64,000 nt of DNA, taken from positions 80,406 through 144,405 of the forward strand of contig CANQXG010000001.1 in assembly GCA_947627735.1 (NCBI GenBank). Reading direction: 5' to 3'. The notes beneath the pieces are model-generated. The model was not told the DNA's origin, ran no database searches, and was given only the letters and a program-made list of their open reading frames with translations. Made by a program: the position numbers and the translations under genes. This DNA comes from an uncultured Oscillospiraceae bacterium. GTDB lineage: Bacteria > Bacillota > Clostridia > Oscillospirales > Oscillospiraceae. Shown here one piece after another: positions 630 through 63,419 of this stretch (positions are counted from its first letter, which is position 1; every line of letters begins with the position of its first letter).

Positions 630-706
630 GGCGGCGTAGCTCAGTTGGCTAGAGCATGCGGTTCATACCCGCAGTGTCACCGGTTCGAATCCAGTCGCCG
701 CTACCA
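630..706 (+). tRNA. tRNA-Met (anticodon CAT), elongator type
   Basis: Cloverleaf read by eye: acceptor GGCGGCG/CGCCGCT, D arm GCTC-AGTTGGCTA-GAGC, anticodon loop TTCATAC, TTCGAAT T-loop, encoded CCA. It closely resembles Bacillus elongator tRNA-Met. The T stem has one C-A mismatch. Confidence 0.85.
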
Positions 707-735
707 ACGGGAGAGGTCCCCTCTCCCCCAATTAT

Positions 736-812
736 GGAGGCTTAGCTCAGCAGGTTAGAGCGCATGCTTCACACGCATGAGGTCGCGCGTTCGAGTCGCG
801 CAGTCTCCACCA
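736..812 (+). tRNA. tRNA-Val (anticodon CAC)
   Basis: Acceptor GGAGGCT/AGTCTCC, anticodon stem CATGC/GCATG with loop TTCACAC, T arm GCGCG-TTCGAGT-CGCGC, encoded CCA. Confidence 0.85.
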
Positions 813-819
813 TTTCTTT

Positions 820-893
820 GGCCCGTTGGTCAAGTGGTTAAGACACCGCCCTTTCACGGCGGTAACATGGGTTCGAGTCCCGTACGGGTCACC
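820..893 (+). tRNA. tRNA-Glu (anticodon TTC)
   Basis: GGCCCGTTGGTCAAGTGGTTAAGACA..., anticodon stem CCGCC/GGCGG with loop CTTTCAC, TTCGAGT T-loop, encoded CCA. This is typical bacterial tRNA-Glu primary sequence. Confidence 0.85.
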
Positions 894-4561: not shown

Positions 4562-5349
4562 CTGTCCCCTCCCTGCTCCGCCTTGGGGCGGAAATATGTG
4601 CCGGCCATGTCCTGCCCGTCCAGAAGGGCGTACAGCGCCTCCGGCCGGCTGCCGTTGGCGATGACCAGGCCGATGCCCGCCGCCAGGGTCATTTTGGCCG
4701 CGTGCAGCTTCGTCTTCATGCCCCCCACGGCCAGGCCGCTGCCGGACCCCGCCGCCATGGCCTCCAGCGCCGGGGAGATCTCCCCGTCCACGACGCGGAT
4801 GAGCCGGGCGTCCGGGTCCACCCGGGGGTCGGCGGAGTAAAGCCCGTCGATGTCGCTGAGCAGCACCACCAGGTCCGCCCCGATGGCGCAGCCCACGATG
4901 GCCGCCAGGGTGTCGTTGTCCCCCACGGCGATCTCCTCGGTGGAAACGGTGTCGTTCTCGTTGATGATGGGCAGCACCCCCATCGCCAGCAGCCGGGACA
5001 TGGTGTTCACAAAGTGCTCCCGGCGGGCGTCGTCCTCCACGTCGCTGCCGGTGAGCAGCACCTGGGCCACGGTGTGGTTGTACTCGGAAAAAAGCTTGTC
5101 GTAGGTGTACATCAGCTCGCACTGGCCCACGGCGGCAGCCGCCTGCTTGCCCGGCATGTCCTCCGGACGGCGGTCCAGGCCCAGCTTCCCCACGCCCATG
5201 GCGATGGCCCCCGAGGACACCAGCACGATCCTGTGCCCCGCGTTTTTCAGATCGCTCAGCACCTTCACCAGTTTTTCCATGTGCCGTATGTTCAGATTGC
5301 CCGTGGGATAGGTGATGTTGGAGGTGCCCAGCTTGATTACAACAGTCAT
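4558..5349 (-). CDS. proB: glutamate 5-kinase, short form without PUA domain (263 aa)
   Basis: MTVVIKLGTSNITYPTG..., VLVSSGAIAMG and NENDTVSTEEI motifs of the amino-acid kinase family. The upstream part of the 299-aa ORF is non-coding leader. Confidence 0.9.
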   Translation of the reverse strand: MTVVIKLGTSNITYPTGNLNIRHMEKLVKVLSDLKNAGHRIVLVSSGAIAMGVGKLGLDRRPEDMPGKQAAAAVGQCELMYTYDKLFSEYNHTVAQVLLTGSDVEDDARREHFVNTMSRLLAMGVLPIINENDTVSTEEIAVGDNDTLAAIVGCAIGADLVVLLSDIDGLYSADPRVDPDARLIRVVDGEISPALEAMAAGSGSGLAVGGMKTKLHAAKMTLAAGIGLVIANGSRPEALYALLDGQDMAGTYFRPKAEQGGDR

Positions 5350-5428
5350 ATCGTCGTTCACGCCCTTTATGTAAACAGTACGGGACCCTTTCGTCAAAAT
5401 GACGGCGGGGCGCCCTTGACTTTGCCAC

Positions 5429-5457
5429 AGTATAACACGAAAGCGCCCCGAGCGCAA
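5429..5457 (-). promoter_or_regulatory. putative sigma-A promoter of proBA
   Basis: On the minus strand: TTGCGC, a 17-nt spacer and TATACT, about 80 nt upstream of the proB ATG. Confidence 0.5.
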
Positions 5458-5466
5458 TACGATATG

Positions 5467-5499
5467 GAAAAACGCGGCGGGTGTTCCCGCCGCGCTTTT
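5467..5499 (-). terminator. intrinsic terminator after the M23 peptidase gene
   Basis: Stem cgcggcggg / cccgccgcg with a tgtt loop, flanked by an A run and a T run, so it is functional in both directions. Confidence 0.7.
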
Positions 5500-5506
5500 C
5501 CTCCCC

Positions 5507-6271
5507 TCAGGGCATGACGTCCTGGGGCAGATATTCCATGGGGTCGGCGCTCAGGCCGTCTTTGGTCATGGCGAAGTGGAGGTGGCTGACCTGGTTCACC
5601 TCGCCCAGGGCCGTGGTGCCCACGGAGCCGATGACCTGGCCCATGGTGACCACCTGGCCCTCCGACACAGGGGGCCGGTCCGCCAGATTGGCGTAGATGG
5701 AGTGGGTGCCGTTGCCGTGGTCGATCTCCACGGTGGTGCCCAGCATGTCGTCGCCGGACACCCGCACCACCGTGCCGCCGGCGGCGGCCAGCACCTGCTC
5801 GCCCGTGGCGCAGGCCACGTCGATGCCGTCATGGGTGCGCCAGTCCGCCATGGTGCTGTCATACATCAGCTCCTGCACGGAGTAGGGCACCTGCACCTTC
5901 CCCGCCACCGGCCAGACGTAGCTGGTCACGGTTTCGGCGAACACCTCCTGGGCGGGAGGCTCCTGCTGGGGCGCGGCGACGTTCTCCTCTTCCCCGCTGT
6001 CCGCGACCTCCTCCGGGGCCACCGCCTCGGGGGCGGGCTGGGCGTCCGGCTCGGTGCGCATGGCCTCGTCTGCCGGGATCATGGTGACGAACGCCCCGGA
6101 CACGTCCACCACCGGTTCCTCTGCCATTGTGTCTTCTACATTAGTCCCCGCGTCGGCGAGCATGATCCAAAAGGAGGTCACGATCACCGCCGCGCACAGG
6201 AAAAGGACTATGTAGAAGCCCTTTCCCCCCAGGGACCCGGCTCTGGCGCCGGACCCGTGCTTGTTTTCCAT
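5507..6271 (-). CDS. M23/LytM-family metallopeptidase with N-terminal membrane anchor (254 aa)
   Basis: TM segment GFYIVLFLCAAVIVTSFWIML. C-terminal M23 motifs HDGIDVA, IDHGNGTHSIYANL and SHLHFAM. GGAGGG RBS. Confidence 0.85.
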   Translation of the reverse strand: MENKHGSGARAGSLGGKGFYIVLFLCAAVIVTSFWIMLADAGTNVEDTMAEEPVVDVSGAFVTMIPADEAMRTEPDAQPAPEAVAPEEVADSGEEENVAAPQQEPPAQEVFAETVTSYVWPVAGKVQVPYSVQELMYDSTMADWRTHDGIDVACATGEQVLAAAGGTVVRVSGDDMLGTTVEIDHGNGTHSIYANLADRPPVSEGQVVTMGQVIGSVGTTALGEVNQVSHLHFAMTKDGLSADPMEYLPQDVMP

Positions 6272-41549: not shown

Positions 41550-42012
41550 CGCTGCGCCAGCTCTGTCTGGCGGCGGGGATGCCCAGCTGCCCCTCGATGG
41601 CCGCGGACAGTGCCCCGTCGTAGGCGGCGTCCACCGCGGCGGACCAGGGCACCCAGATCAGCGCGTCCTCGTCCCAGCGGGCCGTGACGCGCACATCCCC
41701 CACGGGCCTGCCCGCCTCGGCCGCTTTGTCCGATATATATGCCTGGCAGCGCTGTTCTATGTATGTCCGATCCATATATCTCGCCTCCTGTTCCGCCTCA
41801 TCCACGATCTCATCCGCCCGCCGGCGGTACTCTGCCATGCCCGCCGCCAGGCCGTCCACGTCCAGGCGCACCACGGGCGACACCACCGCCAGGGCGCACA
41901 GGATGCCGCAGGCCAGGCGTGTCACCTGCCGCACCCGGCCCTTGGGCGTCAGGGCCATGGCCCCCGCCGCCAGCACCGATGCCGCCGTCACCGCGGCGAT
42001 CCACTCTCTCAC
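41542..42012 (-). CDS. spoIIIAF: stage III sporulation protein AF (156 aa)
   Basis: GTG start overlapping the spoIIIAE stop (GTGA). Two N-terminal TM segments, then a soluble domain. Position and size fit SpoIIIAF. Confidence 0.75.
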   Translation of the reverse strand: MREWIAAVTAASVLAAGAMALTPKGRVRQVTRLACGILCALAVVSPVVRLDVDGLAAGMAEYRRRADEIVDEAEQEARYMDRTYIEQRCQAYISDKAAEAGRPVGDVRVTARWDEDALIWVPWSAAVDAAYDGALSAAIEGQLGIPAARQSWRSDG

Positions 42013-43073
42013 GGTGTAAGCACCTCCGCTCCCAGTACCACCGACACGAACAGCATCGCCCCCGCGCTGCCCACCAGCCCCAGGGCCATGCCGTAGGCGG
42101 CGGCGATGTTCCCCACCAGCGCCGCCAGCCGCCCCTCGGCGAAGGGTTCGGCGATGCTGGCCGCCGCCTTGAAAAGCACATAGTGCAGCCCCAGGCTCAG
42201 CGCCGGCCCCACGCACACGCACAGCACCGCCGCCAGCCCGAATATGCCCACCGCGCCCCGCAGCAGCGCAGCCCCTGCCACGTAGGTGTCCGCCGCGTCC
42301 GCCAGGATGGACCCCACCACCGGCAGCGCCGCGGAGATGGCGCTCTTGGCCAGGCTCCCCGCCGCCTTGTCCGCCGCGCCGGCCACCGCCCCCGTCAGGG
42401 TGAGGGTCAGGGTGAACACGGTGGTCAGCCCCGCCAGGAGGGTGGTGCACACCCACCCCATCAGCTTCACCGGCCCGCCCAGCGCCCCGGAGGGCAGGGC
42501 CGCGTTGGCGGTGCTGGCCGCGGCGTAGGCGTAGATGAGCGGCAGTATCAGCTGCATCCCCACCGACATGAGCACGTCCATGAACAGGGCGGACGCGGCG
42601 TACTTGGCCGCGGCGGAGGCCCCGTGTCCCGCCGCCGCGGCGGCGGCCGTCACCGTGGGCAGCAGCGCCCGGGAGAAGTCCCCCAGCTCTATGAGAGCGG
42701 TCCTCGCCTGGGCCAGGAACGAGCGCATGTCCCCCGCGCAGGCGCCCATGATGGCCAGCGCGCCCCCCAGCAGGATCACCTCCGGGGCCTTCCCGTCCTC
42801 CGCCATGGCCGCCGCCATGGAGCACAGAAGTGTCACCGTCAGGGCCACCGCGGCGCTCCCCGCCGCCCGGCGCAGGGCGCCGGACAGCTTCTCCAGCGCC
42901 CAGGTGCCGATCCGGCTCCAGACGCCCCCGCCGGCGGCGTCCTCCACGGTCATCTCCCCCAGTATCTCCTGGGCGGAGGGGGGCAGGGCCTCCTCCAGCG
43001 CCGACATGTCCGCCGCCAGGGCAGGCGTGGACAGCGCCAGGCACAAAATAAGCATCACCGCCAGCGTCCTCAC
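42009..43073 (-). CDS. spoIIIAE: stage III sporulation protein AE (354 aa)
   Basis: GTG start overlapping the spoIIIAD stop. Signal-like N-terminus VRTLAVMLILCLALSTPALA, then a polytopic Ala/Gly-rich membrane domain typical of SpoIIIAE. Confidence 0.85.
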   Translation of the reverse strand: MRTLAVMLILCLALSTPALAADMSALEEALPPSAQEILGEMTVEDAAGGGVWSRIGTWALEKLSGALRRAAGSAAVALTVTLLCSMAAAMAEDGKAPEVILLGGALAIMGACAGDMRSFLAQARTALIELGDFSRALLPTVTAAAAAAGHGASAAAKYAASALFMDVLMSVGMQLILPLIYAYAAASTANAALPSGALGGPVKLMGWVCTTLLAGLTTVFTLTLTLTGAVAGAADKAAGSLAKSAISAALPVVGSILADAADTYVAGAALLRGAVGIFGLAAVLCVCVGPALSLGLHYVLFKAAASIAEPFAEGRLAALVGNIAAAYGMALGLVGSAGAMLFVSVVLGAEVLTP

Positions 43074-43456
43074 GGCAGCCTCCCCGCCATGTCCAGCAGC
43101 GCCCGGACCAGGGGCAGCGCCGCCCCCAGGGCGCAGGCCGCCCCCGCCAGCTCCACCGCCGACGCCGGCGCGCTCTGGCCCGCGTCCCGGCACAGGTCCG
43201 CCGCCAGGCGGGTGATGACGCCGATGCCCACGCACTTCAATACCGGCGTCACCACCGCCGGGCTGAGGCCCGTCTGTTCCCTGGCCATGGTCGCCACCTC
43301 CTCCAGCTGGCTGATAAGGCCGGCGGCCAGGCCCGCCGCCGCCAGCGTCACGGCGATGCCCAGGGCCAGGGCCAGCTCCGGCACGTCCTTTTTCAGCACC
43401 ATGGCCATCAGCGCCCCCGCCAGCGACAGGGCCGCCGCCTTGATGAGCAGGCTCAT
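43070..43456 (-). CDS. spoIIIAD: stage III sporulation protein AD (128 aa)
   Basis: MSLLIKAAALSLAGALMAMVLKK and LKCVGIGVITRLAADLCRDAGQ, the conserved SpoIIIAD sequence. Confidence 0.9.
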   Translation of the reverse strand: MSLLIKAAALSLAGALMAMVLKKDVPELALALGIAVTLAAAGLAAGLISQLEEVATMAREQTGLSPAVVTPVLKCVGIGVITRLAADLCRDAGQSAPASAVELAGAACALGAALPLVRALLDMAGRLP

Positions 43457-43650
43457 CCCAGCTCGAACAGCTGCCGGATCAGCTGGAACAGCTCCGCGAT
43501 CCGCTGCACCAGGATCACCAGCACCACCACCAGCCCCGCGATGGTGGTCATCAGCGCCTGCTCCTCCCGCCCGGAGCGGGTCAGCAGCAGGTTCAGCACC
43601 GCCACCAATATCCCCACCGCCGCTATCTTGAATATCAGATCAACGTCCAT
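43453..43650 (-). CDS. spoIIIAC: stage III sporulation protein AC (65 aa)
   Basis: MDVDLIFKIAAVGILVAVLNLLLTRSGREEQALMTTIAGLVVVL, canonical SpoIIIAC. Confidence 0.9.
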   Translation of the reverse strand: MDVDLIFKIAAVGILVAVLNLLLTRSGREEQALMTTIAGLVVVLVILVQRIAELFQLIRQLFELG

Positions 43651-43664
43651 GTCCCCATCCTTCG

Positions 43665-44162
43665 TTACAGCAGCAGCACCGCCACCGCCGCCGCGCCCGC
43701 CGCGCCCAGTCCCACCGCCATCCGGCTCCGCTCCGCCAGATCCCGCCGGGCACGCTCCCCGGCAAGTGCCAGCGCCCGCCGGCAGCCCGCCGCGGCGGAC
43801 ACCTGCTCCTCGGCCCCGTACCGGCCCAGCACCGGCCCCAGCGGGCGCAGCATCTCCCCCGCCTGCCGGGGCAGCAGCGCCAGCGCCTGGTCCCATATCT
43901 GTGCCATGTCCCGCTGCCCCAGGTGCGCCAGCCCCTCCGATACCGCGGCGCAGAACCGGCCTGTCCGCCCTGTTGCCTGGCCGCGCAGCCGCTCAAACAG
44001 CGCCGGCATGGGGGTGTGGAACCGGTCCAGCTCGAATTCCATGGTCTCCAGCATCCGGCACAGCTGCTCCAGCAGCTCCGCCCGTTCCCGCGTCCTCCGG
44101 ACCCACTCCAGCCCCGCCATGGCCCCGGCGGCGGTGATGAGCGCCGCGCCGATCAGGCGCAT
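43665..44162 (-). CDS. spoIIIAB: stage III sporulation protein AB (165 aa)
   Basis: MRLIGAALITAAGAMAGLEW, RMLETMEFELDRFHTPMPALFERL and a C-terminal TM. It overlaps the spoIIIAA end. Confidence 0.85.
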   Translation of the reverse strand: MRLIGAALITAAGAMAGLEWVRRTRERAELLEQLCRMLETMEFELDRFHTPMPALFERLRGQATGRTGRFCAAVSEGLAHLGQRDMAQIWDQALALLPRQAGEMLRPLGPVLGRYGAEEQVSAAAGCRRALALAGERARRDLAERSRMAVGLGAAGAAAVAVLLL

Positions 44163-55792: not shown

Positions 55793-56545
55793 ATGCCTAT
55801 GGACAAAGACCTGGAAAAGCGCATAGAGGAACTCTCCGCCCGGTGCGAGAGGCAGAGCCTGGTCACCTCCACCGGCTTTCTCACCATGGCCGAGCAGGCG
55901 GAGGTCACCGCCTGGGCCAAGCGCCGACCGGAGGTGAAGCTGCACTTGGACGGCGGCGGCGCCGCCTGCGAGCGCAAGTGCGCCTTCTTCCTGCCCTTTT
56001 ATGCTGAGGAAGAGGACTTCGACCCCGCCGAGCACATCCGCGCGGTGAAGGTGACCGCCTATTTCGGCGAGCCGGGCCACCGGGACTACATGGGCGCTGC
56101 CCTGGGCCTTGGTGTGCGCCGGGAGTGGATCGGGGACTTTCAGGTCCTGGGCGGCACGGCGTATATCTTCTGCCTGCCCACGGTGGAGAAGCTGCTGGTG
56201 GACGAGCTGACCCAGGTGGGGCGCGTTTCCGTCAGGACAGCCTCTATCCCCCTTGCCGACGTGCCCGCGCCGGAGCGGAAGGTGAAGAAGATGACCTTCA
56301 CGGTGAAGAGCCTGCGCCTGGACGCGGTGGCCGGCGGCATGTTCGGCATCTCCCGCACCCAGGCGGCGGAGCTGATCCGCGCCGGGGCGGTGACGCTCAA
56401 CTACGTCCAGTGCCTGCACGTGGACGCGCCCATAGCCCCCGGGGACGTGATCTCCATCCGGGGCCGGGGCAAGGGCGCCGTCGCCGCCCTGGGCGGCCAC
56501 TCCCGGAAGGACAGGACATTTCTGGAAACGGAGATATATCTGTAA
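55793..56545 (+). CDS. YlmH-like RNA-binding S4-domain protein (250 aa)
   Basis: N-terminal YlmH-type domain (FLTMAEQA, GGAACERKCAFF) and a C-terminal S4 domain (LRLDAVAGGMFGISRTQAAELIRAGAVTLN). Confidence 0.75.
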   Translation: MPMDKDLEKRIEELSARCERQSLVTSTGFLTMAEQAEVTAWAKRRPEVKLHLDGGGAACERKCAFFLPFYAEEEDFDPAEHIRAVKVTAYFGEPGHRDYMGAALGLGVRREWIGDFQVLGGTAYIFCLPTVEKLLVDELTQVGRVSVRTASIPLADVPAPERKVKKMTFTVKSLRLDAVAGGMFGISRTQAAELIRAGAVTLNYVQCLHVDAPIAPGDVISIRGRGKGAVAALGGHSRKDRTFLETEIYL

Positions 56546-56570
56546 CGGTCATATACGCCCCAGAATCCGG

Positions 56571-56682
56571 CCCCCTCTGACGAGGGGGCTGTCGCCGCTG
56601 TAAGCGGTGACTGGGGGAGAGAAATTAAGAATCTCTCCCTCCGTCGCGGCTTCGCCGCGCCACCTCCCTCGTCAGAGGGAGG
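56571..56682. repeat. about 112-bp nested palindromic (MITE/REP-like) element
   Basis: Hairpins at 56571-56588, 56591-56611, 56615-56639 (centre), 56646-56658 and 56663-56682. The left and right halves are imperfect reverse complements (ctctgacgag / ctcgtcagag). Confidence 0.75.
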
Positions 56683-56695
56683 CAGATAATACTGT

Positions 56696-56725
56696 GGGCC
56701 TGTTGTGAACAGGCCCGTATTTTTT
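56696..56725 (+). terminator. intrinsic terminator after the S4-domain gene
   Basis: Stem gggcctgtt / aacaggccc followed by gtatttttt. Confidence 0.8.
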
Positions 56726-56750
56726 CGCTCTTTCCGTACACACTATCCCC

Positions 56751-57770
56751 ATGGAAACGAAACGACTGGGAAAACAGACCGTCCGCCTCACCCTGCAGCC
56801 GGGCGTCGCCGCGGCGGCGTGCGTGGGCGGCAAGAAAGAGAGCGAAGGCCCTCTGCGCAAATACTTCGACTACCTCAGCGACGACTCCCGCTTCGGCGCC
56901 AAGAGCTGGGAGAAGGCGGAGAGCGCCATGCTGAAGATGTGCTGGTCCATCGCCTGCGACAAGGCCAAGACCTGCCCCGGGGACGTGCAGTACGTGTTCT
57001 CCGGCGACCTATTGAACCAGTGCGCCGGCTCGGCCTACGCCATGCGGGAGTGCGGCGTGCCCTACTTCGGCCTGTACGGCGCCTGCTCCACCATGGCGGA
57101 GGGACTTTCCCTGGCGGCCATGATGATCGACGGGGGCTTCTGCGACATATCCGCCGCGGCCACCAGCAGCCACTTCTGCTCCGCGGAGCGGCAGTACCGC
57201 TTCCCCCTGCAGTACGGCAGCCAGCGGCCCCCCACCGCCCAGCGGACCGTCACCGGCGCGGGGGCGCTGATCCTGCGCGCCGACGGCCCCGCCCCCTACG
57301 TCACCCATATCACCACCGGCGTCATCACCGACGCGGGGGTGACGGACATGAACAACATGGGCGCGGCCATGGCCCCGGCGGCCTACGAAACGCTGAAAGC
57401 CCACTTCGCCGACACGGGCCGGACACCGGATTACTACGACGCCATCGTCACAGGCGATCTGGGCATCGTAGGGTCCCACATCCTGGCGGACCTGTTCCTC
57501 CGGGACGGGGTGGACCTGGGGGTGCGGTATATGGACTGCGGCCGGCTCATCTACTCCGCCAACGGCCAGGACGCCCACTCCGGCGGCTCCGGCTGCGGCT
57601 GCTCGGCGGCGGTGCTGTGCGGCCATCTGCTCCACGGCATGCTGGAGCACAACTGGAACAGGCTCCTGTTCGCCGCCACCGGGGCCATGATGAGTCCCAC
57701 CACCAACCAGCAGGGGGAGAGCATCCCCGCCATCTGCCACGCGGTGGCGCTGGAGAATACGAGGTGCTGA
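56751..57770 (+). CDS. spoVAD: stage V sporulation protein AD (339 aa)
   Basis: Thiolase-like fold. FSGDLLNQ, YGACSTMAEG, ATSSHFCSAERQYRFPLQYG, AGGSGCGCSA-type motif (HSGGSGCGCSAAV) and SPTTNQQGESIPAICH. Confidence 0.92.
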   Translation: METKRLGKQTVRLTLQPGVAAAACVGGKKESEGPLRKYFDYLSDDSRFGAKSWEKAESAMLKMCWSIACDKAKTCPGDVQYVFSGDLLNQCAGSAYAMRECGVPYFGLYGACSTMAEGLSLAAMMIDGGFCDISAAATSSHFCSAERQYRFPLQYGSQRPPTAQRTVTGAGALILRADGPAPYVTHITTGVITDAGVTDMNNMGAAMAPAAYETLKAHFADTGRTPDYYDAIVTGDLGIVGSHILADLFLRDGVDLGVRYMDCGRLIYSANGQDAHSGGSGCGCSAAVLCGHLLHGMLEHNWNRLLFAATGAMMSPTTNQQGESIPAICHAVALENTRC

Positions 57771-57771
57771 C

Positions 57772-58143
57772 ATGAATGAAACGGTAATGGCATTTCTGAA
57801 GGCCTTTCTGGTGGGCGGGACGCTGTGCCTCATCGGCCAGCTTCTCATCGACCTGACGAAGCTCACTCCCGCCCGCATCCTCACCGGCTACGTGGTGGCC
57901 GGGGTGATATTGGGCGCGCTGGGGCTGTACCAGCCCCTGGCGGACTGGGCCGGAGCCGGGGCCACGGTGCCCCTGACCGGGTTCGGGAACCTGCTGGCCC
58001 AGGGCGTGCGGGAGGCGGTGGCCCAGCGGGGCGTCATCGGGGCCTTCACCGGCGGCTTCACCGCCGCGGCGGGAGGCGTGTGCGCCGCGGTGTTTTTCGG
58101 CATCCTGACGGCCACGGTGTTCAAAAGCCGGGAAAAATACTGA
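57772..58143 (+). CDS. spoVAE: stage V sporulation protein AE (SpoVAEb-type) (123 aa)
   Basis: AFLVGGTLCLIGQLLID and AGAGATVPLTGFGN closely resemble B. subtilis SpoVAEb rather than SpoVAC. Confidence 0.88.
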   Translation: MNETVMAFLKAFLVGGTLCLIGQLLIDLTKLTPARILTGYVVAGVILGALGLYQPLADWAGAGATVPLTGFGNLLAQGVREAVAQRGVIGAFTGGFTAAAGGVCAAVFFGILTATVFKSREKY

Positions 58144-59451: not shown

Positions 59452-59477
59452 GACCTGCCCCCAGGGGCAGGTCTTTT
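59452..59477 (+). terminator. intrinsic terminator after the MFS gene
   Basis: Stem gacctgccc / gggcaggtc followed by tttt. Confidence 0.75.
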
Positions 59478-59559: not shown

Positions 59560-59568
59560 TGCTATAAT
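59560..59568 (+). promoter_or_regulatory. extended -10 promoter element (TGCTATAAT) upstream of the RNase gene
   Basis: TGcTATAAT lies 36 nt upstream of the ATG at 59605. No good -35. Confidence 0.5.
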
Positions 59569-59604
59569 AGCCGCAAAGCATTTGCTGCCCAAGGAGGCCA
59601 TCTG

Positions 59605-60114
59605 ATGAAACGCATCCTCTCCCTGCTGCTGGCCCTGACGCTGCTGGCGCTGTGCGCCGGCTGCGGCCAGGATCTGGGCGTCATCGGCGGCGCGGACGGC
59701 CCCACCGCGGTGATCGTCGGTGAAACCGTCCCGTCGGACGCCGACCTGCCCGTATACGGCGAGTACTATTACGACCTGGAGAACGTGGTGCTGTACCTGG
59801 CGCTCTACGGCGAGCTGCCGGACAACTACATCACCAAGGATGAGGCCCGTGACCTGGGCTGGCAGGGCGGCTCCGTGGAGGACTACCTGGAGGGCGCCGC
59901 CATCGGCGGGGACCGGTTCGGCAACCGGGAGGGCCTGCTGCCGGAGGCGCCGGGCCGGCACTACACCGAGTGCGACATCGACACCCTGGGCTATGGCTCC
60001 CGGGGCGCCCGGCGGCTGGTGTTCTCCGACGACGGGCTGTACTTCTACTCCGACGACCACTACGAGAGCTTCTCCGAGGTCACCGTCACGGAGGACTATG
60101 AGGTGATATGGTGA
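59605..60114 (+). CDS. barnase/binase-family (microbial N1/T1 superfamily) guanyl-specific ribonuclease with signal/lipoprotein-like leader (169 aa)
   Basis: Leader MKRILSLLLALTLLALCAGC. LPDNYITKDEARDLGW, IGGDRFGNREGLLP and SDDHYESFSEV align to barnase (LPDNYITKSEAQALGW, IGGDIFSNREGKLP, TTDHYQTFTKI), including the catalytic Glu and His. AAGGAGG RBS. Confidence 0.85.
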   Translation: MKRILSLLLALTLLALCAGCGQDLGVIGGADGPTAVIVGETVPSDADLPVYGEYYYDLENVVLYLALYGELPDNYITKDEARDLGWQGGSVEDYLEGAAIGGDRFGNREGLLPEAPGRHYTECDIDTLGYGSRGARRLVFSDDGLYFYSDDHYESFSEVTVTEDYEVIW

Positions 60115-60905
60115 ACACGGTCACACTGAACTGCGCCCGGCTCGCGGACCGGGAGCTGGCCCACACCTACCTGGCCGGGAGCCTGTCCCTGCCGGCGTGG
60201 TACGGGCGGAATCTGGACGCGCTGTACGACTGTCTGACGGACATAGGCCCCTGCGCCCTGGTGCTGGAGGACGCGGACAGCCTCCGCCGGGCGGGCGGCT
60301 ACGGCAGCCGCATCCTGGACGCCATCGACGACGCCGCCCGTGCCAACCCCGCTCTGACGGTGGAATACCGCCCCGCCCCCATGGCCACGCTGTTTTCCCT
60401 GGACGGGGCGAACTACGACCCCCGATGGCCGGCGGTCATACGCCCCTCCGTGCGGGCCATCATCCTCCGGGGCGATGAGATCGCCCTGGTCCACAGCCTG
60501 AAATACGACTACTACAAATTCCCCGGCGGGGGCGTCGAACCGGGAGAGGACCGCATCGCCGCCCTGGTCCGGGAGGTCCGGGAGGAGGCGGCCCTGGCGG
60601 TGCTGTCGGAGTCGGTCCGGCCCTATGGCATGGTCCTGCGCACCGAAAAGGGCGCGGGCGAGCGGGTATTCATCCAGGACAACTACTACTATCTCTGCCG
60701 CACCGCCCCGGAGGCCCTTGCCCAGGACCTGGACGGCTATGAGGCGGAGGAGGGCTTCACCCCGGAAACGGTGGCCCCCCAGACCGCCATCGCCGCCAAC
60801 CGGCGGCCTGACCACGGCCCCAAGTCCCCCCTGATGATCCTGCGGGAGGCCCGGGTGCTGGAAAAACTCATCGCCGACGGCTATCTGCCCGCCGACGGGA
60901 ACTAG
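60108..60905 (+). CDS. barstar-like RNase inhibitor domain fused to a Nudix hydrolase domain (265 aa)
   Basis: The N-terminus LSLPAWYGRNLDALYDCLTDIGPCALVLE aligns to barstar ([29 protein letters not shown]), with both inhibitory Asp residues kept. The C-terminus has the Nudix box GGGVEPGEDRIAALVREVREEAAL. The start overlaps the RNase stop (ATGGTGA). Confidence 0.8.
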   Translation: MVNTVTLNCARLADRELAHTYLAGSLSLPAWYGRNLDALYDCLTDIGPCALVLEDADSLRRAGGYGSRILDAIDDAARANPALTVEYRPAPMATLFSLDGANYDPRWPAVIRPSVRAIILRGDEIALVHSLKYDYYKFPGGGVEPGEDRIAALVREVREEAALAVLSESVRPYGMVLRTEKGAGERVFIQDNYYYLCRTAPEALAQDLDGYEAEEGFTPETVAPQTAIAANRRPDHGPKSPLMILREARVLEKLIADGYLPADGN

Positions 60906-61554: not shown

Positions 61555-62445
61555 TTATTGGACCTGCTCCAGGTACACGTCCCCGCCGCCGGTGGTGATG
61601 CGGCACAGGCCCCCGTTCTCGTCGCCGGGAGGGGTGTGCACGCTGCCGCCGCCGGCGTCGATCTCATACCGCTTGGGGCTGAGGATGTCCCCGGTCACGT
61701 TCCCGGACCCGGTGGTGATGTCCATGCCGGCCCCATCGCTGTCCCAGAACCCCACGTCCCCGCCCACGGAGGACAGGACCATCTCCCCGGCGGTCTTGAC
61801 CGCCGTCAGGCCCACGTCCCCGGTACCGGTCCCGACTTGGAGGCTGTCCAGCTCCACGTCGGACAGCCATACGTCCCCCTCTCCCGCGGTCAGGACCGCG
61901 TCGGCGGCGGTGCTGTCGGAAACAAATATGTCCCCGCTGCCTGTGGTAAGGCTGAGGTTGCCGTCCTGAAGGTCCCAGACGGATATGGTCCCGCTGTCCG
62001 TGGTGACGGTCAGGCTGTCCGGGCCGATCCGGTCGGAGGCGTACACATCCCCGCTGTCGGTGGTCACCGTGATGGTCTTACAGCTATCGGAGGGCAGGTA
62101 CACCGACAGGGAGATATAGTCGTCGTCCCGCAGCCTGTCCACCCAGGAGCTGCGCCGGCTCCACCGGACGGTGAGGACCCCGTCCATCACCTCCGCCACA
62201 GCGTCGATGCGGCTGTTCTCGGGCATATAGACCTCCGCCTCGCTGCCCCGGTCCCGGTACAGGAACACGTCGCACCCCTCCGCCTGCACGTCCAGGACCG
62301 TGAAGGGCGCGTCGATATCGTAGATCTGGGTTTCCGGCTCAGACGGGATGAACCAGTCGAAGCTGACGCCGAACAGGGGCATCACCGCCACCGCCAGCGC
62401 CACCCCCGCCAGGATCAGCGCAGCGGCGGCCAGCGTCTTTTTCAT
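61555..62445 (-). CDS. DUF4097-like beta-strand-repeat protein with N-terminal membrane anchor (296 aa)
   Basis: MKKTLAAAALILAGVALAVAV, then reiterated T(T/D)SGD(V/I)-type repeats (VTTDSGDVY, VTTDSGTIS, LTTGSGDIF, GTGTGDVG, ITTGSGNV, ITTGGGDVY). GGAGGAG RBS. Confidence 0.75.
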   Translation of the reverse strand: MKKTLAAAALILAGVALAVAVMPLFGVSFDWFIPSEPETQIYDIDAPFTVLDVQAEGCDVFLYRDRGSEAEVYMPENSRIDAVAEVMDGVLTVRWSRRSSWVDRLRDDDYISLSVYLPSDSCKTITVTTDSGDVYASDRIGPDSLTVTTDSGTISVWDLQDGNLSLTTGSGDIFVSDSTAADAVLTAGEGDVWLSDVELDSLQVGTGTGDVGLTAVKTAGEMVLSSVGGDVGFWDSDGAGMDITTGSGNVTGDILSPKRYEIDAGGGSVHTPPGDENGGLCRITTGGGDVYLEQVQ

Positions 62446-62498
62446 GCTCTCCTCCAGACCGGGACCGGGAGAGCACCGCTCCCCCGGTCCCGTAAGGT

Positions 62499-63419
62499 TT
62501 ATGTAAGATCGGCGAACAGGTCCGCCTGATAGACCCCCGCCTCCACCATGGCCCGGATGGCCTCCGCCACAGGCCGCCGGTCGGCGGGATAGGTGATGCC
62601 GTACCACTGCCCCTCCGTGGGCAGGACCTTCACCCGGGCCTTTTTCGCCCGGACCAGCCTGCCGATGATGTCCGGCAGCAGATACTCGTCCTTCACCGGG
62701 TCGGCCAGGCCCTCCCGGAACGCCCGGAAGCCCCCGTCCAGCAGTCCGACGAACTGGGGCGTGAGCATCCACAGGTTCATGGACACCAGGCTGTCCCCGT
62801 CCAGCAGCCGCAGCGCCCCGTCCGGCCGGCGCACGGCGGCGCCCCCCGGGACCTTGATGATGTTGCGTGTCTCCGCCACGTCGGTCAGATATCCCGCCCC
62901 GTCGGTGGCGCACAGGCCGCGGGTCACGCCCCCCTCCTCGGAGAGGGTGTTTTTCAGCACGAACCCCACCATGCCGTAATCGGCGCCGTCCTCCGGCCTG
63001 TGCCCGGCCAGGAAGGCGTACGCCTTGGCCATGGCGTCCTTGCCGTAATAGTCGTCGGCGTTGATGACGGCGAAGGGGCCGCGGATGAGTTCGGCGCAGG
63101 CCAAAACGGCCTGGCCGGTACCCCAGGGCTTGGTCCTGCCCGCCGGCAGGTCCTCGGTGCTCTGGAAGGCATAGTCCCAGGATATGCCCAAGGCCCGGAA
63201 CCGGGCCTCCAGGCGGCTGCCGGCGACCTCCATGAAGTCGTCGTAGATGTCCCGCCGGACGATGAACACCACCCGGTCGAACCCCGCCTCGATGGCGTCA
63301 TGGACGGAATAGTCCATGATGATCTCCCCGGAAGGACCCACCCGTTCCAGCTGCTTTACGGTGGCGCCGTAGCGGGAGCCGATCCCCGCCGCCAGCACCA
63401 CCAGCGTGATCTCACTCAT
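62499..63419 (-). CDS. sugar-phosphate nucleotidyltransferase family protein (306 aa)
   Basis: N-terminal LVVLAAGIGSRYG (GxGxR NTP-binding loop), KPWGTGQAV and INADDYYG. The ATG at 63419 follows GGGGGAG. Confidence 0.75.
   Translation of the reverse strand: MSEITLVVLAAGIGSRYGATVKQLERVGPSGEIIMDYSVHDAIEAGFDRVVFIVRRDIYDDFMEVAGSRLEARFRALGISWDYAFQSTEDLPAGRTKPWGTGQAVLACAELIRGPFAVINADDYYGKDAMAKAYAFLAGHRPEDGADYGMVGFVLKNTLSEEGGVTRGLCATDGAGYLTDVAETRNIIKVPGGAAVRRPDGALRLLDGDSLVSMNLWMLTPQFVGLLDGGFRAFREGLADPVKDEYLLPDIIGRLVRAKKARVKVLPTEGQWYGITYPADRRPVAEAIRAMVEAGVYQADLFADLT

Follow-up and report, generated by a model that had tools for sequence, protein, structure and literature searches.

A barstar-Nudix fusion gene adjoins a barnase-type ribonuclease gene in an uncultured Oscillospiraceae bacterium

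Genes at the locus

The 64,000-nucleotide (nt) stretch of contig CANQXG010000001.1 that we analysed (the window), from an uncultured Oscillospiraceae bacterium, contains a gene for a barnase-family ribonuclease (RNase) followed immediately by a gene in which a barstar domain is joined in frame to a Nudix hydrolase domain. The fusion gene (60108-60905) encodes one protein of 265 residues, comprising a barstar domain (residues 1-88), a three-residue join and a complete Nudix domain (residues 92-265), and a GNAT N-acetyltransferase open reading frame (ORF) begins 21 nt 3' of it. An earlier interpretation made from the letters and their ORFs (the sequence-only reading) had proposed that a barnase-like RNase gene precedes a gene for a barstar-Nudix fusion protein, and this holds: the Pfam Ribonuclease, Barstar and NUDIX profiles all match significantly, and the ORF sizes, the spacing to the GNAT gene and the 7-nt overlap of the barnase and fusion ORFs are as it had described. 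The overlap would be 4 nt if the true start of the fusion is the GTG at 60111.

The barnase-type RNase

The RNase matches PF00545 (E = 1.4e-16, 61.2 bits against a cut-off of 24), solved barnase and binase structures match its residues 59-159 (best E = 5.6e-23), and it is ~43% identical to barnase from Bacillus amyloliquefaciens. In an alignment of seven members of its clade with that barnase, the invariant residues include K78 (barnase K27), N107-R108-E109 (guanine loop N58-R59-E60), R118 (R69), E122 of the motif YTECD (catalytic E73), R133 and R137 (R83 and R87) and H152 of the motif DHY (catalytic H102). The sequence-only reading had chosen its catalytic His correctly, in DHY, while the Glu it had chosen, in NREGLLP, lies in the guanine-recognition loop (S57-N58-R59-E60 in barnase) and the true catalytic Glu is E122.

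The protein is built from a lipoprotein-type leader (residues 1-20, ending in Cys20), a tether of ~30 residues, a catalytic domain at residues ~51-159 and a clade-specific tail, EVTVTEDYEVIW. The leader, MKRILSLLLALTLLALCAG followed by the Cys, has a KR n-region and a hydrophobic core, and the Cys is aligned in all seven homologues; the lipobox of the window's protein is slightly off consensus at position -3. Throughout the clade, the leader is basic and hydrophobic, has a conserved Cys at its end and precedes a P/E/A-rich tether of variable length (25-100 residues). The C-terminal tail is conserved in the window and at loci L001, L004, L097-L101 and L103, and is absent from Bacillus barnase. 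These features point to a putative lipoprotein tethered at the cell surface.

The barstar domain

The similarity to barstar, whose statistical support had been left for profile searches to settle, is solid: PF01337 matches residues 3-79 (E = 1.1e-17, 64.2 bits against a cut-off of 23.4), and solved barstar structures match the domain with E = 4e-5. The Asp pair that had been picked out by eye in the inhibitory helix NLDALYDCLT consists of Asp37 and Asp41, which correspond to D35 and D39 of barstar (DxxxD). The two aromatic positions of barstar are aromatic here too, with W31 in place of Y29 and Y40 in place of W38. Across six fusion proteins Y32, G33, N35, L36, D37, L39, D41, C42 and L43 are invariant. 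An AlphaFold2 (AF2) model gives this part of the chain the β-α topology of barstar, with a predicted local distance difference test score (pLDDT) above 90.

The inhibitor start overlaps the barnase stop by 4-7 nt in the window and at L001, L004, L101 and L183, and the start of the fusion is predicted to be translationally coupled to that stop. In size the protein departs from the usual barstar, a stand-alone protein of ~90 residues, by virtue of its C-terminal Nudix domain. The predicted inhibitor function is well supported by the residues of the domain, by its position and by analogy, and engineered C-terminal fusions leave barstar able to bind barnase (PMC9013437). An AF2 run in single-sequence mode, in which the fusion was concatenated with the mature RNase via the natural tether of the RNase, was uninformative (pLDDT 38, predicted template modelling score (pTM) 0.29).

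The closest stand-alone barstar, P0121 (on a 772-bp ENA contig), is a mosaic relative to the barstar domain of the window: 45 of 48 positions are identical over residues 1-48, and 18 of 40 over residues 49-88. This pattern suggests a recombination breakpoint just past the inhibitory helix, and such a breakpoint could allow the 3' portion of the gene to be swapped, whether or not it includes the Nudix part.

The junction and the Nudix domain

In every fusion, the natural C-terminus of the barstar domain is followed by 2-5 residues (Pro-Ala-Pro in the window) and then by the start Met of the Nudix domain. Met92 aligns exactly with the initiator Met of a stand-alone Nudix family (MATLFSLD in the window, MRLLFEID in the family); it is invariant among the fusions, and Met is 95% conserved at residue 1 of the stand-alone proteins. 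In the DNA upstream of Met92, a Shine-Dalgarno sequence is missing from the window, from L001 and from L101, and L004 has a possible GAGG. Internal translation from Met92 was accordingly set aside for the window, L001 and L101, and the Nudix domain of the window is probably made only within the fusion.

The Nudix domain matches PF00293 at residues 112-222 (E = 1.5e-11, 44.9 bits against a cut-off of 21.1). Its Nudix box, GGVEPGEDRIAALVREVREEAAL, follows the pattern GX5EX7REVXEEXAL, as compared with the canonical GX5EX7REUXEEXGU, and retains all of the Glu residues and the Arg. The description of this box as near-canonical was apt: the single deviation is G162A, at the penultimate Gly, which is found only in the window, P0001 and P0002, whereas that Gly is 99% conserved in the family. 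The window's domain keeps 40 of 41 family-conserved positions and the fusions overall keep 38-41, with stand-alone members having a median of two deviations. We compared the window with L001 by the ratio of non-synonymous to synonymous substitution rates (dN/dS), which is 0.19 for the barnase catalytic core, 0.38 for the barstar domain, 0.31 for the Nudix domain and 0.33 for the GNAT. Both domains of the fusion are under purifying selection, and the Nudix domain is very probably an active enzyme.

The AF2 model of the whole fusion, calculated from a 128-sequence alignment, has a pLDDT of 95.8 and a pTM of 0.91, and shows the β-α barstar domain followed directly by the α/β/α sandwich of the Nudix domain. 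Foldseek searches of the PDB with this model returned Nudix structures at E = 8e-10 with target-normalised template modelling scores of up to 0.76, but the top matches are generic and mixed (2azw, Ap4A hydrolase, MutT, ADPRase, NudC and RppH). Likewise, all matches to NCBIfam equivalogs are far under their cut-offs (at most 25 bits, against 95-475), and none of NCBIfam, PDB sequence search and Foldseek allowed assignment to a substrate subfamily (MutT, ADPRase, RppH, NudC, ApnA or CoA).

Stand-alone relatives and other partners of the Nudix family

The window's Nudix domain is 55-67% identical, over its full length, to thousands of stand-alone Nudix proteins of ~170 residues. These are carried by Clostridia, Bacilli and Erysipelotrichales-type gut metagenome-assembled genomes and are annotated only as "NUDIX domain-containing protein" or "MutT family". 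Their neighbourhoods are not conserved: 104 flanking genes represent 124 Pfam families, the commonest neighbours being GNATs (~10%), and three cases have a TRAM-domain tRNA U5 methyltransferase nearby. From these sequence comparisons the family looks housekeeping-like.

At least 14 unrelated partners are fused to this Nudix family, among them LigT/2H phosphoesterase, isochorismatase, GNAT, HD, MGMT, ASCH, DUF402, AAA_18, methyltransferase, peptidase S51, MBL, DUF3990, Mur ligase and a second Nudix domain. GNAT-Nudix fusions exist in both orders, and one cluster of them has 207 members. Two Nudix-LigT/2H fusions, P0007 and P0009 (on Logan contigs of ~1.3 kb), rank with the proteins most closely related to the Nudix domain of the window, at 65-67% identity.

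Recurrence and rarity of the fusion

The exact 265-residue protein of the window is present on four public contigs, and its 90% cluster comprises eight variants on ~20 contigs (NCBI, ENA and Logan). Fusions containing both Pfam domains were also found at lower identity (P0003, 79%; P0006, 57%; P0005, 56%; P0242, 43%), and the reading frame through both domains is kept at 91, 79, 57, 56 and 43% identity. The sequence-only reading had called for a survey of related genomes and had named, as an outcome that would count against it, separate adjacent genes joined by a sequencing error. What the survey found is a fusion that recurs on many independent contigs and is barnase-adjacent in five lineages, with no unfused barstar and Nudix neighbours at any of 160 surveyed loci.

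We searched 5.8 billion protein clusters with a profile built from the fusions and recovered seven clusters (90% identity) with Barstar and NUDIX domains. The same search returned more than 4,300 Nudix relatives at E ≤ 1e-10, and among the best 120 listed nearly all are stand-alone; the best 120 barstar relatives are all single-domain proteins of 83-145 residues. The matches listed in a scan of genome contigs were stand-alone Nudix loci only, at no more than 58% identity. The fusion is real and very rare, and had rightly been called unusual; our literature search found no link between barstar and Nudix.

Some candidate fusions did not survive inspection. L032 and L048, aligned by tblastn over query residues 9-257 and 22-260, are stand-alone Nudix genes with a spurious upstream extension. 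P0251, a protein of 256 residues from L102 that aligns over residues 15-255, has an N-terminal stretch of 85 residues that is not a barstar domain, having neither a Pfam match nor the motif NLDALYDCLT, and there is no barnase upstream. At that locus (L102 2066-2836) a tRNA U5 methyltransferase gene precedes the gene for this protein, whose helical 85-residue N-domain is followed by Nudix, and an HD gene comes after it; the methyltransferase is of the same kind as at the fusion loci L001 and L004.

Fused and unfused barnase modules

Besides the assembly of the window, GCA_947626905.1 carries the fusion. A barnase gene lies directly 5' of the fusion in all five lineages with visible context. The gene orders are MFS - barnase - fusion - GNAT in the window, tRNA U5 methyltransferase - barnase - fusion - GNAT at L001-L003, methyltransferase - barnase - fusion - MarR at L004, barnase - fusion - PIN7 at L101 and barnase - fusion - HTH/TPR at L183. 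As the barnase gene is constant and the downstream gene varies, the conserved unit is barnase plus fusion, and the GNAT is not part of it: a GNAT gene follows the fusion in the window and L001 and a plain barstar in L097 and L100, and is absent from L004, L101 and L183.

Most barnases of this kind are paired with a plain barstar. We examined the 80 metagenome loci whose barnases are most similar: a plain barstar is present at 71, the fusion at none, and no Nudix gene lies within 3.5 kb of any of them. A plain barstar is also carried by assembly GCA_947625475.1. From the other side, none of 80 species-representative loci of the stand-alone Nudix has a barstar within 5 kb. Two comparisons concern syntenic loci: L097 and L100 have the order barnase - barstar (91 and 87 residues) - GNAT and are syntenic with the window and L001, their GNAT being 64-66% identical to that of the window, and L103 has the order barnase - barstar (107 residues) - PIN7 and is syntenic with L101 (barnase core 83% and PIN7 63% identical). 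In both comparisons the Nudix domain is the sole difference.

The PIN7-domain protein is encoded directly 3' of the barnase-inhibitor pair at L101 (1697-2326) and L103 (2119-2724), and may be a second RNase-related gene linked to the module. A further locus, L017, on a contig that is labelled "Bacteroidales" but is low in GC and Bacilli-like, encodes a barnase-like protein of 269 residues (942-1751) that matches a custom hidden Markov model with E = 1.8e-10 and has no Pfam match; judged by eye, its C-terminal part seems to contain hydrophobic segments like those of membrane proteins. Two tandem Nudix paralogues (4977-6265) lie 3 kb downstream of it. The barnase-like and Nudix genes are thus not neighbours, no barstar was detected within 5 kb and the organism is a different, low-GC one, and we treat this pairing as coincidence.

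Layout and flanking features of the window

The coordinates of the features are collected in Table 1. The three co-oriented genes lie 3' of an MFS transporter gene and of spoVAD and spoVAC/EB. A terminator-like hairpin would close the transporter gene and mark the 5' boundary of the barnase unit; a consensus scan did not call it, because its T-run is only four T long. The same scan did not report the promoter-like element TGCTATAAT, which has no good -35 element. The GNAT matches PF13420 with E = 2.4e-21, resembles phosphinothricin/ArsN1 acetyltransferases (163 bits to NCBIfam NF040504, below the cut-off of 210), and is probably encoded on the same transcript as the barnase and fusion genes. 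The GC content at third codon positions is ~0.9 in all genes of the region; codon usage is thus native, and none of the genes looks foreign.

Table 1 Features of the window (coordinates on the 64,000-nt stretch).
Feature	Coordinates	Strand	Basis or remark
Terminator-like hairpin (GACCTGCC...GGCAGGTC then TTTT)	59452-59477	+	Candidate, read from the sequence
Extended -10 promoter-like element TGCTATAAT	59560-59568	+	Candidate, read from the sequence; 37 nt 5' of the barnase start codon
Shine-Dalgarno AAGGAGG	59591-59597	+	Sequence; 7 nt before ATG 59605
Barnase-family guanyl-preferring RNase precursor, 169 residues	59605-60114	+	PF00545 and solved structures
Barstar domain, fusion residues 1-88	60108-60371	+	PF01337 and solved structures
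Inhibitory-helix Asp37 codon	60216-60218	+	
Inhibitory-helix Asp41 codon	60228-60230	+	
Fusion junction, Pro-Ala-Pro then Met92	60372-60383	+	Alignments
Nudix hydrolase domain, fusion residues 92-265, including stop codon	60381-60905	+	PF00293 and AF2 model
Nudix box, G141-L163	60528-60596	+	Catalytic R155, E156, E159 and E160
GNAT N-acetyltransferase, 189 residues	60927-61496	+	PF13420
YlmH-like S4 RNA-binding protein, SpoVAD and SpoVAC/EB genes	55793-58143		
DUF4097 "toastrack" protein gene	61555-62913	-	Convergent with GNAT
Three tandem tRNA genes	630-891	+	
Local GC maximum (0.73)	42001-44000		Strong negative GC skew, -0.175

The YlmH-like and SpoVA genes upstream indicate a spore-forming Firmicute, despite a GC content of 66%. 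On the other side of the GNAT gene, the DUF4097 ORF (452 residues as listed) probably begins too early: its L001 orthologue has 294 residues, and the likely start is at MKKTLAAAALIL. DUF4097 genes recur near stand-alone Nudix genes at L010-L013.

Origin and role of the fusion

On balance, we favour the explanation that the window holds a chromosomal barnase-barstar operon, belonging to a high-GC spore former of the gut Clostridia and probably of the Oscillospiraceae, in which the inhibitor gene was opportunistically fused, in frame and end to start, to a Nudix gene, giving a bifunctional protein. The operon would be driven by its own promoter and ribosome-binding site. The RNase would be exported with its lipoprotein-type leader and remain tethered to the surface, where, by homology, it could cut extracellular RNA after G for scavenging or competition. 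The fusion protein would stay in the cytoplasm, its barstar domain presumably plugging the active site of RNase that folds before export, with Asp37 and Asp41 of helix 2 expected to contact the equivalents of K27, R59, R83, R87 and H102, as in barstar. The Nudix domain probably keeps a nucleoside-diphosphate-X pyrophosphohydrolase activity, on the same substrate as its stand-alone orthologues. This activity would not be needed for RNase immunity, and the coupling of the two functions would be one of co-expression and not of chemistry. As to origin, a barnase-barstar module most likely landed directly 5' of a Nudix gene and the barstar stop codon was then lost. An opportunistic gene fusion is favoured by the promiscuity of the Nudix family in its fusion partners and by the dispensability of the Nudix domain for the module, which follows from the many close barnase loci with a plain barstar and from the syntenic pairs that differ only in this domain.

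Several observations weigh against this explanation. The postulated intermediate, with barstar and Nudix genes adjacent and unfused, was not observed at the loci surveyed. The pTM of the two-domain chain suggests a fixed packing of the domains rather than beads on a string. Moreover, in a neighbour-joining tree of the Nudix domain (192 taxa, 200 bootstraps) the four fusion lineages never group (0 of 200 bootstraps), and quartet tests place each fusion beside a different stand-alone relative in 97-100% of resamples, with some bias since these partners were chosen as nearest neighbours; the Nudix domain of P0005, for example, is 75% identical to the stand-alone P0064 and 61% identical to the domain of the window. 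Repeated, independent joining of these two families would be a hint that their pairing is selected for.

The tree of barnase plus barstar (43 modules, 500 replicates) places the five fusion-bearing modules and the unfused modules L097, L100, L099 and L103 in one clade (76% bootstrap), within which fused and unfused modules are interleaved (L101 with L103, 78%; L097 with L100, 89%); none of the 500 replicates recovers the fusions as monophyletic. Taken together, the patterns in the two trees imply that the barstar and Nudix families were joined several times in a single module lineage, or else that an old fusion shed one of its halves repeatedly. With Met92 retained, the barstar half would be easily lost, and recombination may contribute.

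The sequence-only reading had suggested that the Nudix module might process nucleotides linked to the RNase or tie immunity to nucleotide signalling. Our results neither support nor refute this, and the evidence leans the other way, since the closest barnase-barstar modules have no Nudix domain and this domain is orthologous to a widespread stand-alone enzyme with at least 14 unrelated partners. In its general form, functional coupling would mean that the Nudix domain is switched by barnase binding or acts on RNA ends or nucleotides tied to RNase action (for example 5'-triphosphorylated or NAD-capped RNA, a guanine nucleotide, or by-products of RNA repair of the ADP-ribose type); through the fusion, immunity to the RNase would then be tied to RNA turnover or to signalling by nucleotides. 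At least four lineages, whose Nudix domains are not mutual closest relatives, carry this pair of families as a fusion, always beside barnase and with both catalytic sites conserved, and the rigid packing predicted by AF2 would also suit such coupling. Barnase leaves 2',3'-cyclic phosphate ends, the kind of substrate used by the 2H enzymes fused to Nudix in P0007 and P0009, but neither 2',3'-cyclic phosphates nor 3'-phosphates are substrates for Nudix chemistry. Other partners or neighbours are related to RNA (ASCH, the TRAM-domain tRNA U5 methyltransferase and PIN7), yet most partners of the family are not, and the neighbourhoods of the stand-alone enzyme show no constancy. Profile matches to the decapping enzymes RppH, YtkD and Nudt16-like proteins are weak, far below the family cut-offs, and the Foldseek matches indicate only a generic Nudix. 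With the great majority of related barnase-barstar pairs also having no Nudix gene nearby, we regard functional coupling as rather unlikely. Its strongest form appears more doubtful still: here barstar-Nudix would be a recurrently evolved, integrated immunity enzyme in which barnase binding modulates the Nudix site or the reverse, or in which the Nudix domain removes nucleotide or RNA-end species generated by leaked RNase, such that self-intoxication is both sensed and buffered.

The Nudix domain might instead act without catalysis, as a stabilising, solubilising or dimerising scaffold that raises the level or valency of barstar or blocks its co-export. Many Nudix enzymes are dimeric, and a junction of only three residues within a predicted rigid two-domain body would fit such a role. 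An irrelevant active site, however, would not be expected to keep its REVxEE glutamates and its family-conserved positions as well as or better than the median stand-alone member, or to show the dN/dS seen here, and plain barstars of 87-107 residues suffice in the sister modules; we therefore consider a scaffold improbable. It is very improbable that the Nudix domain provides a second immunity or effector activity within a system of polymorphic toxins or of anti-phage defence. Barnase and barstar domains are indeed used in polymorphic toxin systems (PMC3482391), and the Nudix domain has a weak PADLOC match to PDC-S07 (E = 2.9e-7), but this match spans only the 32-residue Nudix box, and the RNase and GNAT have no PADLOC matches. 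In addition, the 169-residue RNase has no trafficking domain, RHS or filamentous repeats, the flanks contain no toxin/immunity cassette arrays, and no relatives of the fusion were found among IMG/VR viral contigs or in a plasmid collection. Finally, the frameshift near the C-terminus of one cluster member, P0004, could be taken as a sign of an assembly or frameshift artefact joining two genes, or of a decaying pseudogene. The recurrence of the fusion refutes an artefact, with the identical protein on four independent contigs and the frame maintained down to the most divergent homologue, and purifying selection on both halves also speaks against this last possibility, which is barely credible.

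Barnase-barstar is a textbook pair in which barstar is nearly always free-standing; a natural barstar attached to an enzyme predicted to be catalytically intact is therefore unusual, and this one has been kept in several lineages, always beside the RNase. Were the coupling functional, it would point to the substrate of a very abundant Nudix family of gut Firmicutes and add a new layer of self-protection against secreted RNases, and in an integrated immunity enzyme the enzymatic arm would be obligatory, a first among RNase immunity proteins. In the absence of functional coupling, the case that we think more likely, the locus is a clear instance from nature of two genes fused end to start. It would then indicate that barstar tolerates a rigid C-terminal cargo, which is of minor interest for protein engineering and calls for caution in annotation.

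Comparison with known systems

Bifunctional antitoxin or immunity proteins such as DarG and Tri1 resemble barstar-Nudix in combining a toxin-binding module and a hydrolase in one polypeptide. The enzyme in proteins of that type reverses the chemical modification made by the toxin, whereas a Nudix enzyme cannot reverse RNA cleavage.

The imm-barstar/tox-barnase pairs of polymorphic toxins (Zhang et al. 2012, PMC3482391) share with the window the specific pairing of barstar with a barnase-like nuclease, and the window corresponds to the "simple barnase-barstar gene pair" type with its toxin-then-immunity order; unlike polymorphic toxins, it shows no large multidomain toxin, cassettes or polymorphism. 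That survey of toxin and immunity proteins describes imm-barstar only as a barnase-specific, stand-alone immunity protein, and the word "nudix" has no occurrence in it.

The stand-alone Nudix family resembles the window's domain in its start Met, its overall identity and its conserved positions. The difference is that the domain in the window has neither a start nor a ribosome-binding site of its own and would be expressed as the C-terminal part of an RNase inhibitor.

Other close parallels are barnase-barstar of B. amyloliquefaciens (PDB code 1BRS), binase, and RNase Sa with its barstar-like inhibitor. The window shares with them the order of RNase then inhibitor with coupled translation, all of the catalytic, guanine-recognition and barstar-contact residues, and the barstar fold with its DxxxD helix. 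It differs in that its RNase has a lipoprotein-type leader, a tether and an extra C-terminal tail where the known enzymes have a plain secretion signal, and in that its inhibitor is the N-terminal third of an enzyme fusion instead of a small stand-alone protein. The barstar-Nudix architecture is a variant of a known system and not a new kind of system.

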